Of a stretch of DNA of 64,000 bases, positions 44,442-52,840 are shown piece by piece. Location of the stretch: contig JAQVIY010000002.1 in the NCBI GenBank assembly GCA_028695415.1, positions 4,883-68,882 on the forward strand, in the 5' to 3' direction. The position numbers were made by a program, and so were the translations under genes. Positions within the stretch are counted from its first letter, which is position 1; each line of letters starts with the position of its first letter. The notes under the pieces were generated by a model that was not told the DNA's origin, did not search any database, and saw only the letters and a list, made by a program, of their open reading frames with translations. The stretch is from Minisyncoccota bacterium. GTDB taxonomy: Bacteria > Patescibacteriota > Minisyncoccia > Phycocordibacterales > Phycocordibacteraceae.

Positions 44442-44933
44442 ATGGCAATATCAAAAGACAAGAAGCGCGAGATAGTCGCGAAGCTCACCGAAGCTTTCAA
44501 GGAAGCGTCGTCGGTAGCGTTTATTGGCTTCACTAAGCTTACCGTCAAGGATTCATCGCGCTTGCGTGACGAGCTCCGGAATGCGGACGTGAAGTACTAC
44601 GTCGCGAAGAAGACCCTTATCAAGAAGGCGCTCGAGGGTCGCGGCTACACCGGCGAGCTCTCCGAGCTTCCGGGTGAAATCGCTGTCGCGTGGACGAGTA
44701 CGGACGTCACCGCGCCGACGCGTGTCGTGCATGAATTCGGCAAGAAGCTGAAGGGTGCGCTCACGCTCCTCGGAGGCGTGTTCGAGAACGCGTTTATTGA
44801 CGCGGCCGCCGCAAAAGCTATCGCAACTATTCCGCCAATGCCGGTTCTGCGCGGTATGTTCGCTAACATTATCAATTCGCCTATACAACGGTTCGCGATT
44901 GCTCTCAGTGAGGTCGCGAAGACGAAAGTATAG
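44442..44933 (+). CDS. rplJ: 50S ribosomal protein L10
   Basis: KKREIVAKLTEAFKEASSVAFIGFTKLTVKDSSRLRDELRNADVKYYVAKKTL is typical of L10. Confidence 0.85.
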   Translation: MAISKDKKREIVAKLTEAFKEASSVAFIGFTKLTVKDSSRLRDELRNADVKYYVAKKTLIKKALEGRGYTGELSELPGEIAVAWTSTDVTAPTRVVHEFGKKLKGALTLLGGVFENAFIDAAAAKAIATIPPMPVLRGMFANIINSPIQRFAIALSEVAKTKV

Positions 44934-44995
44934 GAGGCCTGCCCCGTAGCCAACGCGCAGCGTTGTGGTACTGGGGTAGCTAAGACTAAAACAGC

Positions 44996-45361
44996 ATGAA
45001 TCAGGAACAGATAATCGAGGCGGTCGAGAAGATGACCGTGCTTGAACTCAATACACTCGTGAAGGCAATCGAAGAGAAGTGGGGCGTTTCTGCGACCGCG
45101 GTCGCAGCAGCAGGTCCGGCAGCGGCAGGCGCCGCTGAGGAGGAGGGTAAGTCCACGAATGATGTGGAACTCACCGAAGCCGGCGCGACCAAGATCGCCG
45201 TTATCAAGGTGGTCAAGGAGGCGCTCGCTCTCGGCCTCAAGGAGGCAAAGGATCTCGTTGATGCAGCTCCCTCAATGCTGAAGACGGGCATGAAGAAGGA
45301 GGACGCCGCTGAGCTCGCCAAGAAGCTCACGGATGCCGGAGCAAAGGTTACTCTTAAGTAA
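44996..45361 (+). CDS. rplL: 50S ribosomal protein L7/L12
   Basis: N-terminal dimerisation helix, Ala/Glu hinge, C-terminal domain [31 protein letters not shown]...KVTLK. Terminator 45372-45412. Confidence 0.9.
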
Positions 45362-46759: not shown

Positions 46760-47727
46760 GTTCCTCCTCCAAAACCGCCCCCTTTCTAGAGGGGGCGGTT
46801 TTGTGTTGACAGGGATTTCTGCGTACCCTATACTCCTTCTACGTGTCTACGAACCGAAAACTTTCTTACTTAGGAGCGGATAGGCCGTAAGGCCGCGCGC
46901 GTTGCAAAACGCACGAAAACCGCCCCGAGGGGCGGTTTTCGTTTCAAAAAGGGACACGGGAATCTTTGACATACGAATACGCATAGGTAATTGAAAGCTC
47001 CGTGGCTCACCGCTACGGAGCATCAAAGTGCAGATAGTAATGGTTGTGGTAACCAGAATTCCGTGCGAGAGACAGTAAGAGTACACGGTGGATGCCTTGG
47101 CCTAGGACGGCGAAGAAGGACGCGACTAACCTGCGATAAGCTTCGGGGAGGCGGTTTGTAGCCTTTGATCCGGAGATGTCCGAATGGGGAAACCCTACAG
47201 TTTTGAACTGTAATCCGCGGGGTAACGCCCGCGCGAAGCGAACCCTGGGAAGTGAAACATCTCAGTACCAGGAGGAAAAGAGAACAATATGAATTGCGTT
47301 CTCTTCAAGCATTATGTTTGTTTGAAGGGAACGCGATTCTCGTGATACCCCGAGTAGCGGCGAGCGAAAAGGGAAAAGCCCAAACCCGCACACTCACTTT
47401 GCCATTGTGCCTAACGTTGTTCAGAAGAATCAACTTCTGGACGCGCGTGGCCCAATGGAACGTTTGAGTATCAACTACGTCAGTTGGCACAAGAACAACG
47501 ATGGCAAAGTGAGTGTGCGGGGGTTGTAAGATGCGAACATTCCGATTTATCGGTAAAGAGTTATCAATCGTCTATATAGCGGAAGCTGCTGGGAAGCAGC
47601 GCCCCAGAGGGTAATGGCCCCGTACGCGAAATGTATGACGACTCTTGTTTGTATTCTTGAGTAGTTCGAGACACGAGTAGCTCGAATGAATCTGCCGGAA
47701 CTAACCGGTAAGGCTAAACACGTCCTA

Positions 47728-47774
<47 letters not shown>

Positions 47775-49389
47775 GAGAGGGGAGTGAAATAGAACTGAAA
47801 CCGTGTACTTACAAGGGGTCGGAGCGGTGCACCATACAGCACTTGTGCTGTCTCGTGCTTGATTAAGCAGGGCGAAACTTGATAAGGACTTAGATTTGGG
47901 CGTGCGTACGGACAACAAACTCCATACGCAGTAAGCCAGGCGTTGAGCCGTCTAAGATAACTGTCAGGTGCCCTCCTTAATCATGTACGAGTGTTGTATG
48001 GTGCACCGTGACGGCATGCCTATTGAAGAATGAGCCGGCGAGTGTATATATCTTGCGTAGCTAAGTCCTTACGGGGCGGAGCTTAAGGGAAACCGAGCGT
48101 GAATAGCGCGATTGTAGGATATATACGACCCGAAGCCAGATGAGCTTGCCATGAGCAGGGTGAAGTTTGTCGAAAGACAGATGGAGGCCCGAACCCGTTG
48201 GTCGTACAACGCCTTGGGATGACTTGTGGCAAGGAGTGAAAAGCTAATCGAATCTGGGAATAGCTGGTTCTCTCCGAAACAGCTTTTGGGCTGGCGTCGC
48301 CATATGTGTGCATGGGGGTAGAGCACTGGAAGGGATCAACAGGGAGAAATCTCGTGATTCCTATCAAACTCCGAATACCATGTACCCGGGCGGCAGTTAG
48401 AAGGTGGGGGCGAAGCTCCATCGATCGAGAGGGGAAGAGCCCTGATCGCAAATTAAGGCCCCTAAATCAACGCTCAGTACATCCACAAGGAAGTGAGGAC
48501 TCATAGACAGTGAGGATGTTGGCTTAGAAGCAGCCACCATTCAAAGAAAGCGTAACAGCTCACTCATCGAGAGTCCTTGCGCCGAAGATGATCGGGGTTA
48601 AGCGTTGTGCCGAAATTGCGGGTTTGTGTTTATTCCGATAAATACAAGCGGTAGGAGAGTGTTCTGTTCGCGATGAAGCTTAAGGGGTAACCCGTGGTGG
48701 AGCGTACAGAAGTAAGAATGCCGGTACAAGTAACCACAACGCGGGTGAGAACCCCGCGCGTCGAAAGATCAAGGTTTCCTCAGCTATGGTGATCAACTGA
48801 GGGTTAGTCGGGCCTAAGGGGATGGCGAGAGCCGCACCCGATGGACACAGGGTTAATATTCCCTGACCGTTTTTAGAGGCTATGGAGTGACGGACTGCTG
48901 TATGTGCTGCCCATTATTGGATTTGGGTCGGCTTGGTGAGGAAGCGCGTTAGGCAAATCCGGCGCGCATTATTCCGAGCTGAGTCGCAATTTCCTCCTAC
49001 GGGGGGAGAGAGGGTGCAAAGCGCGGTTCCAAGAAAATCTTCTACGCATCAACTCTAAAGATGACCGTACCGTAAACCGACACAGGTGATCAGGTCGAGC
49101 AGACCAAGACGAACGAGTAAGAGGTCCTCAAGGAACTCGGCAAACAAGCGGCCGTAAGTTAGCGATAAGGCCTGCCTCCTGCCTGCAAGGGCGGGAGGCC
49201 GCAGCGAAAGTTTTCCTATCAACTGTTTACCAAAAACACAGCTCCCTGCAAACTCGTAAGAGGAAGTATAGGGGGTGACACCTGACCAATGCCGGAAGGT
49301 TAACCACGGTGGGTGGTATGTCGCAAGATGTACTGCTGGACTGTGTAAGCCCCGGTGAATGTCGGCGATAACTATAATCGTCCTAAGGT

Positions 49390-49902
49390 TCCGGGCGCGA
49401 CGAGAGTCGTGCTCGGAAGGACTAGGACGATTGTAGCGGTAAACATACACAAGCTGCCTTGCTGCGCAGTAATGCGCGGATTAGTCCACATGGCTATATG
49501 CTGGGAAGCGCGGAAGCGCGATCAGCAGGGAAGATTCGTGAACTTCACAGAGGAGAATAATCCTCAAAGATATAAGTTGGGTTGGTGTAATAATCAATCA
49601 AAGAGACAGGCATAGACAGCGAGGAGGTGGGCTTAAGAGCAGCCACCCTTTGAAGAGAGCGTTATAGCTCACTCGTCGAGTCGGTCAGACGTGGTTGATA
49701 GCATAAGAAGACATTTGGCCTTGCCTGCGTGCAAGGGACAACCAGTGCCTTCAAGACGTCGGACCAGTTTCGACACCCATCTTATACCCTAGGGAATGAC
49801 TACATTCCCTCTTCTGTGAAGTTCACGAAAACCCTCAGAGACCAAACGCCATACTCCTATTCGTAGGAGCAAGATAGAGTCCAAAGGTTGAAAGGAACCT
49901 AG
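49390..49902 (+). mobile_element. 23S insertion 1: ORF-less group I-like intron after the position equivalent to E. coli U1931 (helix 69/71 region)
   Basis: 5' exon ends CCTAAGGT (U). Insertion ends ...CCTAG (G). Exon resumes AGCGTAATTCCTTGTCGGG. Contains a roughly 20-bp long-range inverted repeat (49536-49557 with 49810-49830) and a roughly 75-nt segment near-identical to 23S 48510-48585. Confidence 0.6.
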
Positions 49903-50810
49903 AGCGTAATTCCTTGTCGGGTAAGTTCCGACGTGCACGAATGGTGTAATGAGTGGGAAACTGTCTCGAGGACTCGCTCGGTGAAAATGCACTTCCGGTG
50001 AAGATGCCGGATACCTGTAGTTAGACGAAAAGACCCCAGGAGCTTTACTATAGCTTCGTATTGGCACTGCGGGATTCATGCGTAGCATAGGTGGGAGGAT
50101 TTGAAGCATTGGTTTCGGCTGGTGTGGATCCGTCAGTGAAATACCACTCTTGAATTTTGCAGTGTCTAACCCCGTGAGCGTAACTCACGGGGGACCGTGC
50201 GTGGCAGGTAGTTTTGGTGGGGCGCTATCCTCCTAAAAAGTAACGGAGGAGTCTATTAAGGTTCTCTAGGCGCGAATGGAAACCGTGCCGATAGTGTAAT
50301 GGCATAAGAGAGCTTAACTGTAAGGGGTACATCCCGAGCAGATGCGAAAGCAGAGCATAGTGAACCGATGGTACGCCTTAGATGCGGCCAGAGATTAACG
50401 GATATAAGTTACCCTGGGGATAACAGGCTAGTTCCGCCCAAGCGTCCATAGCGACGGCGGAGTTCGGCACCTCGATGTCGGCTCACCTTAGCGCGGGGCT
50501 GGAGAAGGTCCCAAGCGTATGGCTGTTCGCCATTTAAAAAGGTACGCGAGCTGGGTTCAAACCGTTCAGCAACTGACTTCGGTCGGTGATTGAACGGTTT
50601 GAACCCCGAGGCAAATGTTAGCTACGTGGAGACGTAGTGTGAATAAACGACAACTCACGGCGGTCTCGACTAGGAATAGTCGAGAAGCAAATCAACTGAT
50701 ATCGGTGGAACCCAGCCCCAGTTTTAAAATGCATAAAACTGGAGCTGGGCAATACCGAGGGAATTTGTCTTATGTGCTTCATTGAGGAATGTTCTTTGAG
50801 AATGTATTGC

Positions 50811-50887
50811 GGAGAAGTCGCCAAGCGGTTAAGGCACCAGACTTTCAAATCTGGCATGCGAAGGTTCGAACCCTTCCTTCTCCTCCA
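50811..50887 (+). ncRNA. tRNA-Gln-like element with 8-nt anticodon loop (CTTTCAAA) and encoded CCA, nested in 23S intron 2 inside a 19-bp inverted repeat
   Basis: Acceptor GGAGAAG/CTTCTCC, D arm GCCAAGCGGTTAAGGC (as in bacterial tRNA-Gln), anticodon stem CCAGA/TCTGG, variable CATGC, T arm GAAGG-TTCGAAC-CCTTC, discriminator T plus CCA. Flanked by CTTATGTGCTTCATTGAGGA (50769-50788) and its complement (50914-50932). Confidence 0.5.
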
Positions 50888-51104
50888 TACATTTTCTGGC
50901 AACTTAGGTTGCCTCCTCAATGAAGCACATAAACGAAGCCCGTAGAGACTGAATGTTGATCATCCCGCCCCACTTTTGTCATTAGGACAGAGGCGGGGAG
51001 GGCTCACATAATTAGATGTACCTCGTTATTCCAATGACGGCGGTGTATCAAAAGTGGAGCTGGATGGTGTTACAGTCCGATCCCGCCAGTAATGGCGGCG
51101 TTAT

Positions 51105-51212: not shown

Positions 51213-52068
51213 AAAATATTGCTACTTCAGAGAGAGATCTCTGATGACAACGCTGCTTATAACGGTGGAGTCTAAGGCGCTTCTGGTTTTAGAGGTCGAT
51301 ATCCGACGGTCCAGTGGATATTGACCTCGCTTGAGGACCAGAATGACGCTATGATAATACCGTGGGAAGTCGATTAAGTATTACCAATGCAGATCTCGCG
51401 TATATCGCGGGCTTCTTGGATGGAGATGGAAGTCTCATGTTCCAATTAAAGAAGCGCGCAGATTCGACCAAAGGAGTGCGTTTTATGGCGACGATATGTC
51501 TTTATCAAGATACTCGCCATGATGCGCCGCTCTCGTGGATTCGAACGCGACTCAAATGCGGCTATGTTTCTAAACGGAACGATGGCATGACAGAATTACG
51601 CATCAATGGCTTCTCTCAAGTGAGGGAGACCGTAGAAGCGCTTCTGCCGTATCTTCGTTTCAAGAAGAAACAAGCAAGACTACTCATTCGGGCATGTAAA
51701 TTGCTCGAACAAGAGACGCTCCGCACCATGAAGTCGAGAGATATACGAAAGATTGTTGATTTGCTGTTGCTCATACAGAATGAAAACTATATGAGCAAAA
51801 AGCGAAAGACGAAAGAAGAACTGCATCACATGCTTGGTTTGACCCCGTAACGACTTACGTTGAAAGATACGTGGACTCATAGGTAGAGGAATCGTTCCGC
51901 AGGCAGCTCGCTAACGCGACTGCACTTGGATTTTCTAAAGCGGAGTACCGCTAAGAAAATCTCGGCGAGAACGACAGCTCCTATGGGTAAGATGCAGCCA
52001 TCCTAACTTCGCACAGGCGGAAAAGGATGAAGATATAGTCTGAGCTCCTGGAAACAGGGGAAGTATCG
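51213..52068 (+). mobile_element. 23S insertion 3: group I intron carrying a LAGLIDADG homing endonuclease ORF, inserted on the 5' side of the sarcin-ricin loop (E. coli about 2656/2657)
   Basis: Joining exons gives CCCTAGT|ACGAGAGGACCGG, matching CCTAGTACGAGAGGACCGG. Intron ends in G. Conserved group I S-element AAGATATAGTC at 52030-52040. Confidence 0.7.
51362..51850 (+). CDS. single-motif LAGLIDADG homing endonuclease (I-CreI-like size, 162 aa) encoded within 23S intron 3
   Basis: LAYIAGFLDGDGSLMF motif. About 160 aa, typical of homodimeric LAGLIDADG enzymes. AT-rich compared with the rRNA exons. Confidence 0.75.
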   Translation: MGSRLSITNADLAYIAGFLDGDGSLMFQLKKRADSTKGVRFMATICLYQDTRHDAPLSWIRTRLKCGYVSKRNDGMTELRINGFSQVRETVEALLPYLRFKKKQARLLIRACKLLEQETLRTMKSRDIRKIVDLLLLIQNENYMSKKRKTKEELHHMLGLTP

Positions 52069-52420: not shown

Positions 52421-52539
52421 GGTTCTGGTGGTTCGGCGGCGGGGTCATACCCGTTCTCATTCCGAACACGGCAGTCAAGCCCGCTAGCGGCGATGGTACT
52501 CATCGTTTCAGATGGGGAGAGTAGCTAACCGCCAGAACC
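52421..52539 (+). rRNA. rrf: 5S ribosomal RNA
   Basis: Terminal helix GGTTCTGGTGG / CCGCCAGAACC. Internal CCGAACACGGCAGTCAAGCCC and AGATGGGGAGAGTAGC. Confidence 0.8.
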
Positions 52540-52735: not shown

Positions 52736-52840
52736 CGGGGTGTAGCTTAGGTAAGTTAAGTGCGGCAAGCACTCTGTCCTGGGTGACAACGTCCGGGAGC
52801 TGTACAGAGGACGCAGGTTCGAATCCTGTCACCCCGACCA
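52736..52840 (+). ncRNA. atypical tRNA-like gene (about 102 nt plus encoded CCA) followed by an intrinsic terminator
   Basis: 7-bp acceptor CGGGGTG/CACCCCG, discriminator A, CCA, canonical T arm GCAGG-TTCGAAT-CCTGT. About 27 extra nt relative to class I tRNAs. A possible CTG (Gln) anticodon-loop parse needs an enlarged D loop and a 21-nt insert. Terminator GCACGCCGCGC-TTGC-GCGCGGCGTTTT at 52842-52868. Confidence 0.45.

Follow-up and report, generated by a model that had tools for sequence, protein, structure and literature searches.

A probable endonuclease-less L1931 group I intron in a patescibacterial 23S rRNA gene with a foreign H42-H44 fragment in its P6 loop

Insertions in the rRNA genes of CPR bacteria are well documented, include LAGLIDADG_1 group I introns at position 1931 of the 23S rRNA, and are reportedly removed from the transcripts (PMC11270868). 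L1931 introns that encode LAGLIDADG proteins are also described from Simkania, Thermotoga, Synechococcus and organelles, and the gain-and-loss cycle of homing-endonuclease genes (HEGs) predicts loss of the gene following fixation (PMC1995217). The Simkania L1931 intron was reported to be unspliced, to go by the title of Everett et al. 1999 as cited in PMC11270868. Since CPR rRNA introns and LAGLIDADG introns at L1931 are already on record, a further intron at this site is in itself ordinary. By contrast, neither the literature searched nor the 45 related introns examined offer a parallel to an intron that bears a sizeable and structurally intact copy of a ribosomal protein (r-protein)-binding domain. 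We describe here a 513-nt insertion (49390-49902, + strand) in the 23S rRNA gene of the 64,000-nt stretch of DNA that was analysed (the window), which is very probably a HEG-less L1931 group I intron of a member of the Patescibacteria (Kaiserbacteria/Paceibacteria-like), with a foreign bacterial H42-H44 fragment in its P6 loop.

Rfam places the start of the bacterial LSU rRNA gene at 47063 on the + strand, and the insertion lies directly 3' of the equivalent of E. coli U1931. The 5' exon end (49372-49389, +) comprises the 3' strand of H69 up to U1931, which is the T at 49389, and its terminus reads ...CCTAAGGT; the 3' exon starts with AGCGTAATTCC at 49903. The conserved H69-H71 linker ...GUCCUAAGGU is thereby broken at 49389/49390 and continues as AGCGUAAUUCCUUGUCGGGUAAGUUCCGAC from 49903, and the same junction, with one exon ending in ...GUCCUAAGGU and the other beginning with AGCGUAAUUCC, is found in 42 metagenomic introns. 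The boundary of the insert cannot be slid in either direction. A preliminary description of this DNA had proposed an ORF-less insertion near H69/H71, at about position 1931, and this proposal stands with exact limits: the ORFs contained in 49390-49902 do not exceed 45 aa, an 86-aa ORF entering from the exon is without a Pfam match, and three spurious ORFs that overlap the intron have no exact counterpart on record. Site 1931 is located between H69 and H71, at the subunit interface.

The insert begins with a 12-bp hairpin capped by a GAGA loop (49390-49417, +), in which 12 of 12 pairs covary among relatives, followed by a conserved exon-complementary element, UAGGACGAUUGUAG (49423-49436, +), whose pairing covaries with the host H69 variant. 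Next comes an internal guide sequence (IGS; 49453-49461, +) made up of GCU for P10 and then GCCUUG for P1, which forms P1 with UAAGGU at 49384-49389 and places G49456 opposite U1931, and then a P2 hairpin with a GUAA loop (49462-49479, +; 7 of 7 pairs covary). The 5' part of the core consists of the P3 5' strand (49490-94), P4 (49499-503 with 49523-27), P5 with a GGAA loop (49508-19) and the P6 5' strand (49528-30), an assignment over 49490-49530 that draws in part on a partial Rfam Intron_gpI alignment. Beyond the P6 extension, also on the + strand, follow the P6 3' strand (49832-34), the R element with the P7 5' strand (49836-47), the P3 3' strand (49848-52), P8 (49854-69), the S element with the P7 3' strand (49871-82), P9 (49885-900) and the terminal G49902. 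The core helices thus occur in the order P3-P4-P5-P6-P7-P3'-P8-P7'-P9.

We counted this structure (5' hairpin, exon-binding element, P1, P10 and P2 to P9) on an alignment of the window with 11 relatives from which the distal P6 contents had been removed. Across the 12 sequences the 76 pairs are paired in 89.5% of cells, as compared to 34-43% in slid controls; both sides change in 34 pairs, and none of 500 shuffles equalled the structure score. Covariation is seen in P2, P3, P6 and P8, and P4 and the 4-bp P7 core do not vary; the splice-site pair U49389.G49456 is U.G in all 12 homologues, and P10, formed by GCU with AGC of the 3' exon, is 97% paired. The group I-like exon boundaries noted earlier, with U at the end of the 5' exon and G as the last base of the insert, are hence borne out and are joined by P10 and by covarying core helices. 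The fit to the Infernal group I model, which had been suggested as a check, is divided: the window yields only a partial match to RF00028 (49499-49570, 14.5 bits, E=0.46; gathering threshold 50 bits), whereas short same-site relatives (L122, L138, L141 and L159) exceed the threshold with 54-66 bits, and the low score of the window is attributable to the 295-nt P6 extension that splits its core. An intervening sequence of the kind cut by RNase III from 23S rRNA, which sits in H25 or H45 as a simple extended hairpin devoid of a ribozyme core, was rejected on the basis of site 1931 and of the group I core.

The exon-complementary element adds a second potential fold to the 5' region. Positions 49372-49385 of the 5' exon pair with 49423-49436 of the intron (an inverted repeat of 14 nt, 93%), and the pairing covaries across the family with a CG/UA ratio of 6:6, the host H69 variants being AACGG, AAUCG or AACCG. 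Given that the pairing between the exon and GGGACGAUU crosses P1, it may represent a pseudoknot or an alternative pre-splicing fold, with the 5' region switching between two folds.

Read from these sequence features, the insert would be excised from the pre-rRNA by the standard two-step group I reaction. The 5' exon UAAGGU would pair with the guide GCCUUG so that U1931 faces G49456, a guanosine would attack after U1931, and G49902 would then fill the P7 site while the exons are joined, with P10 (GCU/AGC) aligning them. The opposing reading, that the insert remains unspliced, either as an expansion segment of the mature 23S rRNA or excised without ligation to leave a fragmented 23S, has the Simkania report in its favour, at the level of the title cited in PMC11270868, as well as same-site inserts of relatives that lack P4-P6 and still keep their helices. 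We consider it improbable, in view of a complete and conserved catalytic core with the U.G pair, terminal G and P10, of a location between H69 and H71 at the subunit interface, and of the reported removal of rRNA insertions from CPR transcripts (PMC11270868).

Placing the intron within its family, we scanned metagenomes with a pattern that joins the R and S elements of the window to the 3' exon and obtained 42 loci, all 42 of which carry inserts of 247-806 nt at, or a few bases from, the same position. A nhmmer profile of ten short L1931 introns matches both flanks of the P6 filling in the window (49413-49569, E=8e-19; 49825-49893, E=4e-10), and the closest relatives (L125, L142, L145, L135 and L149) are about 685 nt long, the first three being approximately 84-90% identical to the window intron over the aligned 5' and 3' core parts. 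In the relatives the P6a loop harbors an ORF of 160-170 aa with a GFTDGEGCF motif that matches LAGLIDADG_1 at E=4.5e-23, encodes a single-motif protein and extends at its end into R, P3' and P8. The window intron is homologous to these HEG-bearing introns and shares with the L1931 LAGLIDADG group the site, the IGS GCUGCC, the R element CAGAGACYAAAC, the S element AAGAUAKAGUCC and the P6/P6a architecture. In contrast to them, it carries no endonuclease gene or remnant, its P6 loop being 253 nt of non-coding sequence with the H42-H44 copy, its P5 is cut to a 4-bp GGAA hairpin, and its P6a is extended from 6-10 bp to 21 bp.

Loci syntenic with the window show further variation at the site. Three of them (L167, L170 and L171) are without an L1931 insert, while L168, L174 and L178-L181 carry L1931 inserts of 180-192 nt with a window-like 5' end, P1-P3, P7-P9 and covarying hairpins, and no P4-P6. 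In three CPR genomes (L168 13164-13343, L174 10280-10470 and L178 4498-4688) these reduced inserts retain the 5' hairpin, the exon-binding element, an IGS-like segment, P2, P3, P7-like strands, P8 and P9, with apparent compensatory changes between lineages as judged by eye, and the guide base opposite U1931 is A, not G. Without P4-P6 they are not conventional ribozymes, and the clade may therefore process L1931 inserts in another way.

The P6 extension is built around a long helix. The two P6a arms (5' arm 49535-49555, 3' arm 49809-49829, both +) are 21 nt long, 95% complementary and separated by the 253 nt of filling (49556-49808, +), which sits at the position of the LAGLIDADG gene in the relatives; the single pair that is not Watson-Crick is G.U, and inverted matches of this kind are expected by chance 0.01 times in shuffles of the window. 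The long-range helix described earlier is thus real and 21 bp long, its perfection holding at the RNA level only, with one G.U, and the 19-mers that had been placed at 49538-49556 and 49811-49829 actually lie at 49537-49555 and 49809-49827. Every relative shows the same succession of P6 (GGR with YCC), a small internal loop and P6a, the sequences of which differ and are always self-complementary (for instance GCCAAC/GUUGG in the short forms and CAAGAAUUG/CAAUUCUUG in L125). The 21-bp helix of the window is the family's own P6a in lengthened form and does not mark the ends of a nested element.

Near-perfect 21-nt inverted arms around 253 nt are what a separate, MITE-like mobile element inside the intron would display, and a nested insertion had been put forward in the preliminary description as one of two alternatives. 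That origin is very unlikely, and the nested insertion is not upheld: the arms coincide with the P6a of every relative, their sole mismatch is a G.U and so a match at the RNA level, no flanking direct repeat or target-site duplication is present, and searches of the window, of 180 fetched loci and of the plasmid and phage collections returned no further copy of the arms or the filling. When the filling is compared by blastn with the window and with every fetched locus, the rRNA-like stretch treated below is the only part to find a match; the whole intron has no relative in the plasmid and phage collections, where blastn aligns only intron positions 216-297 (window 49605-49686), to real 23S genes.

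The filling no longer encodes the single-motif LAGLIDADG endonuclease found within relatives' introns. With the relatives' HEGs as queries, tblastn detected no HEG remnant in it, the only match being to C-terminal residues that overlap the ribozyme core. MAFFT aligns the P6a 5' arm with LAGLIDADG-motif codons, and a derivation of the arm from them is unconvincing. As a whole the filling folds better than its shuffles (z = -2.7), and the segment 49687-49808 taken alone does not stand out (z = -0.03). These observations fit a history in which an ancestral intron with a single-motif LAGLIDADG gene in its P6 loop would have lost that gene in the window lineage, leaving 253 non-coding bases and a lengthened P6a, with about 82 of the bases stemming from a bacterial 23S gene other than that of the present host.

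This stretch (49605-49686, +; 82 nt) is a copy of 23S H42-H43-H44, the GTPase-associated centre (GAC) to which uL11 and uL10 bind. A repeat search reports it as a direct repeat of the host's own, intact GAC outside the intron (48502-48571, + strand, against 49611-49680; 70 nt, 83% identity), and the Rfam LSU model (archaeal) aligns its positions 1164-1245, corresponding to H42-H44, to 49605-49686 with 61.4 bits, E=6e-17 and a posterior probability of 1.00, which rests on both sequence and structure; the blastn match to real 23S genes has E=2e-19. The similarity to rRNA accordingly persists under proper alignment. The copy spans H42 (7 bp), the junction strands and the entire 58-nt uL11-binding domain H43-H44, and it retains the conserved junction sequences AUAGACAG and CGAG; its only non-canonical pair is an A.G, and real H42 is non-canonical there too. 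It therefore has every helix and junction strand in common with the real GAC (E. coli about 1036-1118, the thiostrepton target), and differs from it in being borne by an intron and in lacking the flanking H41 and H45. The second alternative of the preliminary description, capture of rRNA sequence by an intron, is supported by these data: an 82-nt H42-H44 fragment with intact helices lies inside the family's P6 loop.

The source of the fragment is not the present 23S gene. Over 77 nt the copy shares 82% identity with the native GACs of the host and of its syntenic relatives and 90% with 23S of the Legionella/Acinetobacter type, and its H42 3' strand, GUCGAGUCGGUC, is of the latter type where the host has CAUCGAGAGUCC. 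The earlier reading of a diverged copy of 48510-48585 is hence right about homology to 23S and wrong about the source, the copy being nearer to other bacteria than to its host, and its coordinates (about 49590-49680 and 48510-48585) deviate by a few bases from those found here (49605-49686 and 48502-48571). At five positions that are invariant in 19 real GACs the copy has changes of its own, U1061G, G1068A, A1069G, A1084G and A1095U, all of them unpaired; such a placement has a chance probability of about 0.02-0.035. Among the universally conserved loop bases that take part in contacts with factors and thiostrepton, A1067 is retained, while G1068 and A1095 are substituted, and one tandem G.A pair of H42 has become C-G, which may remove the kink-turn used by uL10. 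A real Armatimonadota 23S GAC (L023, about 7220-7340) naturally reads UUAAGAG, with G1068A/A1069G together with G1089, and shares this combination with the copy, so that the changes could predate the capture and have arrived with the donor.

An assembly chimera with reads from a foreign 23S gene would also yield a stretch of this type, the source being a metagenome-assembled genome and the stretch being nearest to gammaproteobacterial-type 23S. We regard such an error as extremely unlikely: the rRNA-like portion measures just 82 nt, the five substitutions are absent from the 19 real GACs (except that L023 has two of them, G1068A and A1069G), and the non-rRNA flanks pair across the stretch inside an intact intron helix. 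In the preferred reading of a captured fragment, the bases presumably entered the intron in an earlier host at the time of HEG loss, possible routes being illegitimate recombination and template switching during repair, and the acquisition probably took place before the intron reached the present lineage or long after it had settled there.

Among the introns compared, the form with the GAC copy is so far unique and known from one intron (n=1). The stretch is absent from all 45 introns compared, 42 metagenomic and 3 syntenic, and a metagenome scan for the GAC block followed by 190-220 nt, AGTCC and the 3' exon returned no match. A scan of genome contigs with the 15-mer GGCTTAAGAGCAGCC gave 120 loci, practically all due to chance and including one real Armatimonadota 23S with an AAGAG loop. 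The literature searched contains no group I intron with an L11/GAC mimic or with captured rRNA.

What the fragment does in the intron, if anything, is best approached through two readings. According to the one to which we lean, it is neutral filler: a repair scar of endonuclease-gene removal, tolerated in the loop and decaying. In this family variable insertions, ORFs and long hairpins among them, customarily sit in P6, the HEG cycle predicts the loss (PMC1995217), the remaining filling (49687-49808) is not unusually structured, and the invariant functional bases A1095 and G1068 are already mutated. Less easily accommodated by decay are the absence of any disrupted helix in the copy despite five loop changes, the finding that the copy is no recent derivative of the window's host, and the z-score of the filling as a whole. 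As filler, the fragment would document an intron patching the hole of endonuclease loss with foreign rRNA sequence, and the tolerance of P6 for large structured cargo would be of some use for ribozyme engineering.

The other reading, which we consider unlikely, holds that the copy is a working protein-binding module, a stalk-base mimic that would recruit uL11 and perhaps also uL10-L12, either stabilising P4-P6 as a splicing cofactor or tying splicing to ribosome assembly and r-protein supply. It draws on the preservation of the H42-H44 helices and of the junction strands AUAGACAG and CGAG, on five copy-specific changes that spare paired positions, and on the location of at least three of them (1061, 1069 and 1095) at sites without tertiary hydrogen bonds, A1095 contacting translation factors only (PMC6239185). 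In real GACs position 1061 is variable, with G in most eukaryotic GACs, positions 1061, 1067 and 1069 make no tertiary hydrogen bonds, and A1095 contacts cofactors and does not contribute to the fold (PMC6239185); the copy thus plausibly retains its fold, though bases that serve in translation are gone. As the copy differs from the host GAC, it would moreover appear to have persisted through divergence or transfer. Against a working module stand its single occurrence, with none of the 42 metagenomic and none of the 3 syntenic introns carrying a copy, a weak statistical signal (p about 0.03) and the partly Watson-Crick H42 tandem G.A, by which the kink-turn for uL10 may be gone. Two further roles were rejected: the host GAC at 48502-48571 is consensus-like and intact, hence the intron copy is no substitute for a defective native one, and A1095 is mutated in the copy, which speaks against a thiostrepton decoy. 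In the main account of the intron, the fragment would persist as a stable, self-folding peripheral module that may still bind uL11/uL10.

RNAs outside the ribosome that resemble the stalk-base binding site have a precedent in r-protein mRNA leaders that mimic rRNA, among them the L10 leader with its imitation of the uL10 site on H42. These leader mimics are short, reside in mRNA 5' leaders and have demonstrated protein binding, whereas the intron copy is a near-full sequence homologue and does not adjoin the start of an r-protein gene, although the 23S gene is preceded by rplJ-rplL at a distance of about 2 kb. Were the copy to bind uL11, the intron would resemble protein-assisted group I introns (CYT-18, Cbp2; r-protein RNA chaperones, PMC1920258) in that a host translation protein aids folding, with the difference that assistance in the known introns comes from recognition of the intron's own core or from a non-specific activity of the protein. 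The literature searches turned up no group I intron that uses a copied rRNA domain as a protein docking site. It is conceivable, if unlikely, that the intron co-opted the stalk-base copy so that one or more r-proteins fold P4-P6 or couple its removal to large-subunit assembly, replacing the maturase-like help of the lost LAGLIDADG protein. A functional copy would represent a new route by which a selfish RNA borrows host factors and a natural case in which an rRNA tertiary domain is reused as a module.

The surroundings of the intron add several observations. A gene 300 nt upstream of the 23S gene encodes a 227-aa MscS-like protein that is 100% identical to an NCBI protein labelled 'MAG: Candidatus Pacebacteria bacterium' and has homologues of 84-92% identity named Kaiserbacteria, Paceibacterota or Minisyncoccia, which assigns the window to a genome of the Patescibacteria (CPR). 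Shortly before the 23S gene, at 44442-45361, are rplJ and rplL, the genes for binding proteins of the real H42-H44; they are preceded by a Wzy_C/TPR gene and not by rplK-rplA, no rplK motif was found anywhere in the window, and the order rplJ-rplL-orf-mscS-23S is conserved in all relatives examined. The global Rfam match ends the 23S gene at 50606, homology to the 23S-5S region of L168 runs on to about 52300, and the 5S gene follows at 52424; the apparent 1.8-kb gap between 23S and 5S is therefore a model-alignment artefact, and the 23S gene measures about 5.2 kb, of which about 2.3 kb are insertions.

Other insertions were noted within the same gene. An 855-nt insertion near its 3' end (51214-52068) contains a LAGLIDADG_1 ORF (51362-51850, Pfam E=5.7e-9), homologues of which are 90% identical in relatives (P0121), along with a partial Rfam group I match (51922-52061, 29 bits, E=6e-5), and is probably an endonuclease-bearing group I intron. 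Two segments of about 120 nt (47391-47515) and about 170 nt (47828-48001) are present in the window 23S and absent from that of L168. A tRNA-like element (50811-50887, within 50770-50926; Rfam tRNA, 58 bits) with an 8-nt anticodon loop, CUUUCAAA, for which ARAGORN gives the 4-base anticodon ttca, caps a long stem formed by the inverted repeats TTATGTGCTTCATTGAGGA and TCCTCAATGAAGCACATAA, and constitutes the second insertion resembling a translation RNA in this 23S gene. ARAGORN detects no tRNA anywhere in L167, L168, L170 or L174, and the sole one it reports for L178 lies well downstream of a homing-endonuclease ORF. Introns in patescibacterial tRNA genes have been described (PMC13011429). Finally, Rfam identifies a 102-nt tRNA at 52736-52837 with 39.9 bits that is not among the tRNAs reported by ARAGORN.
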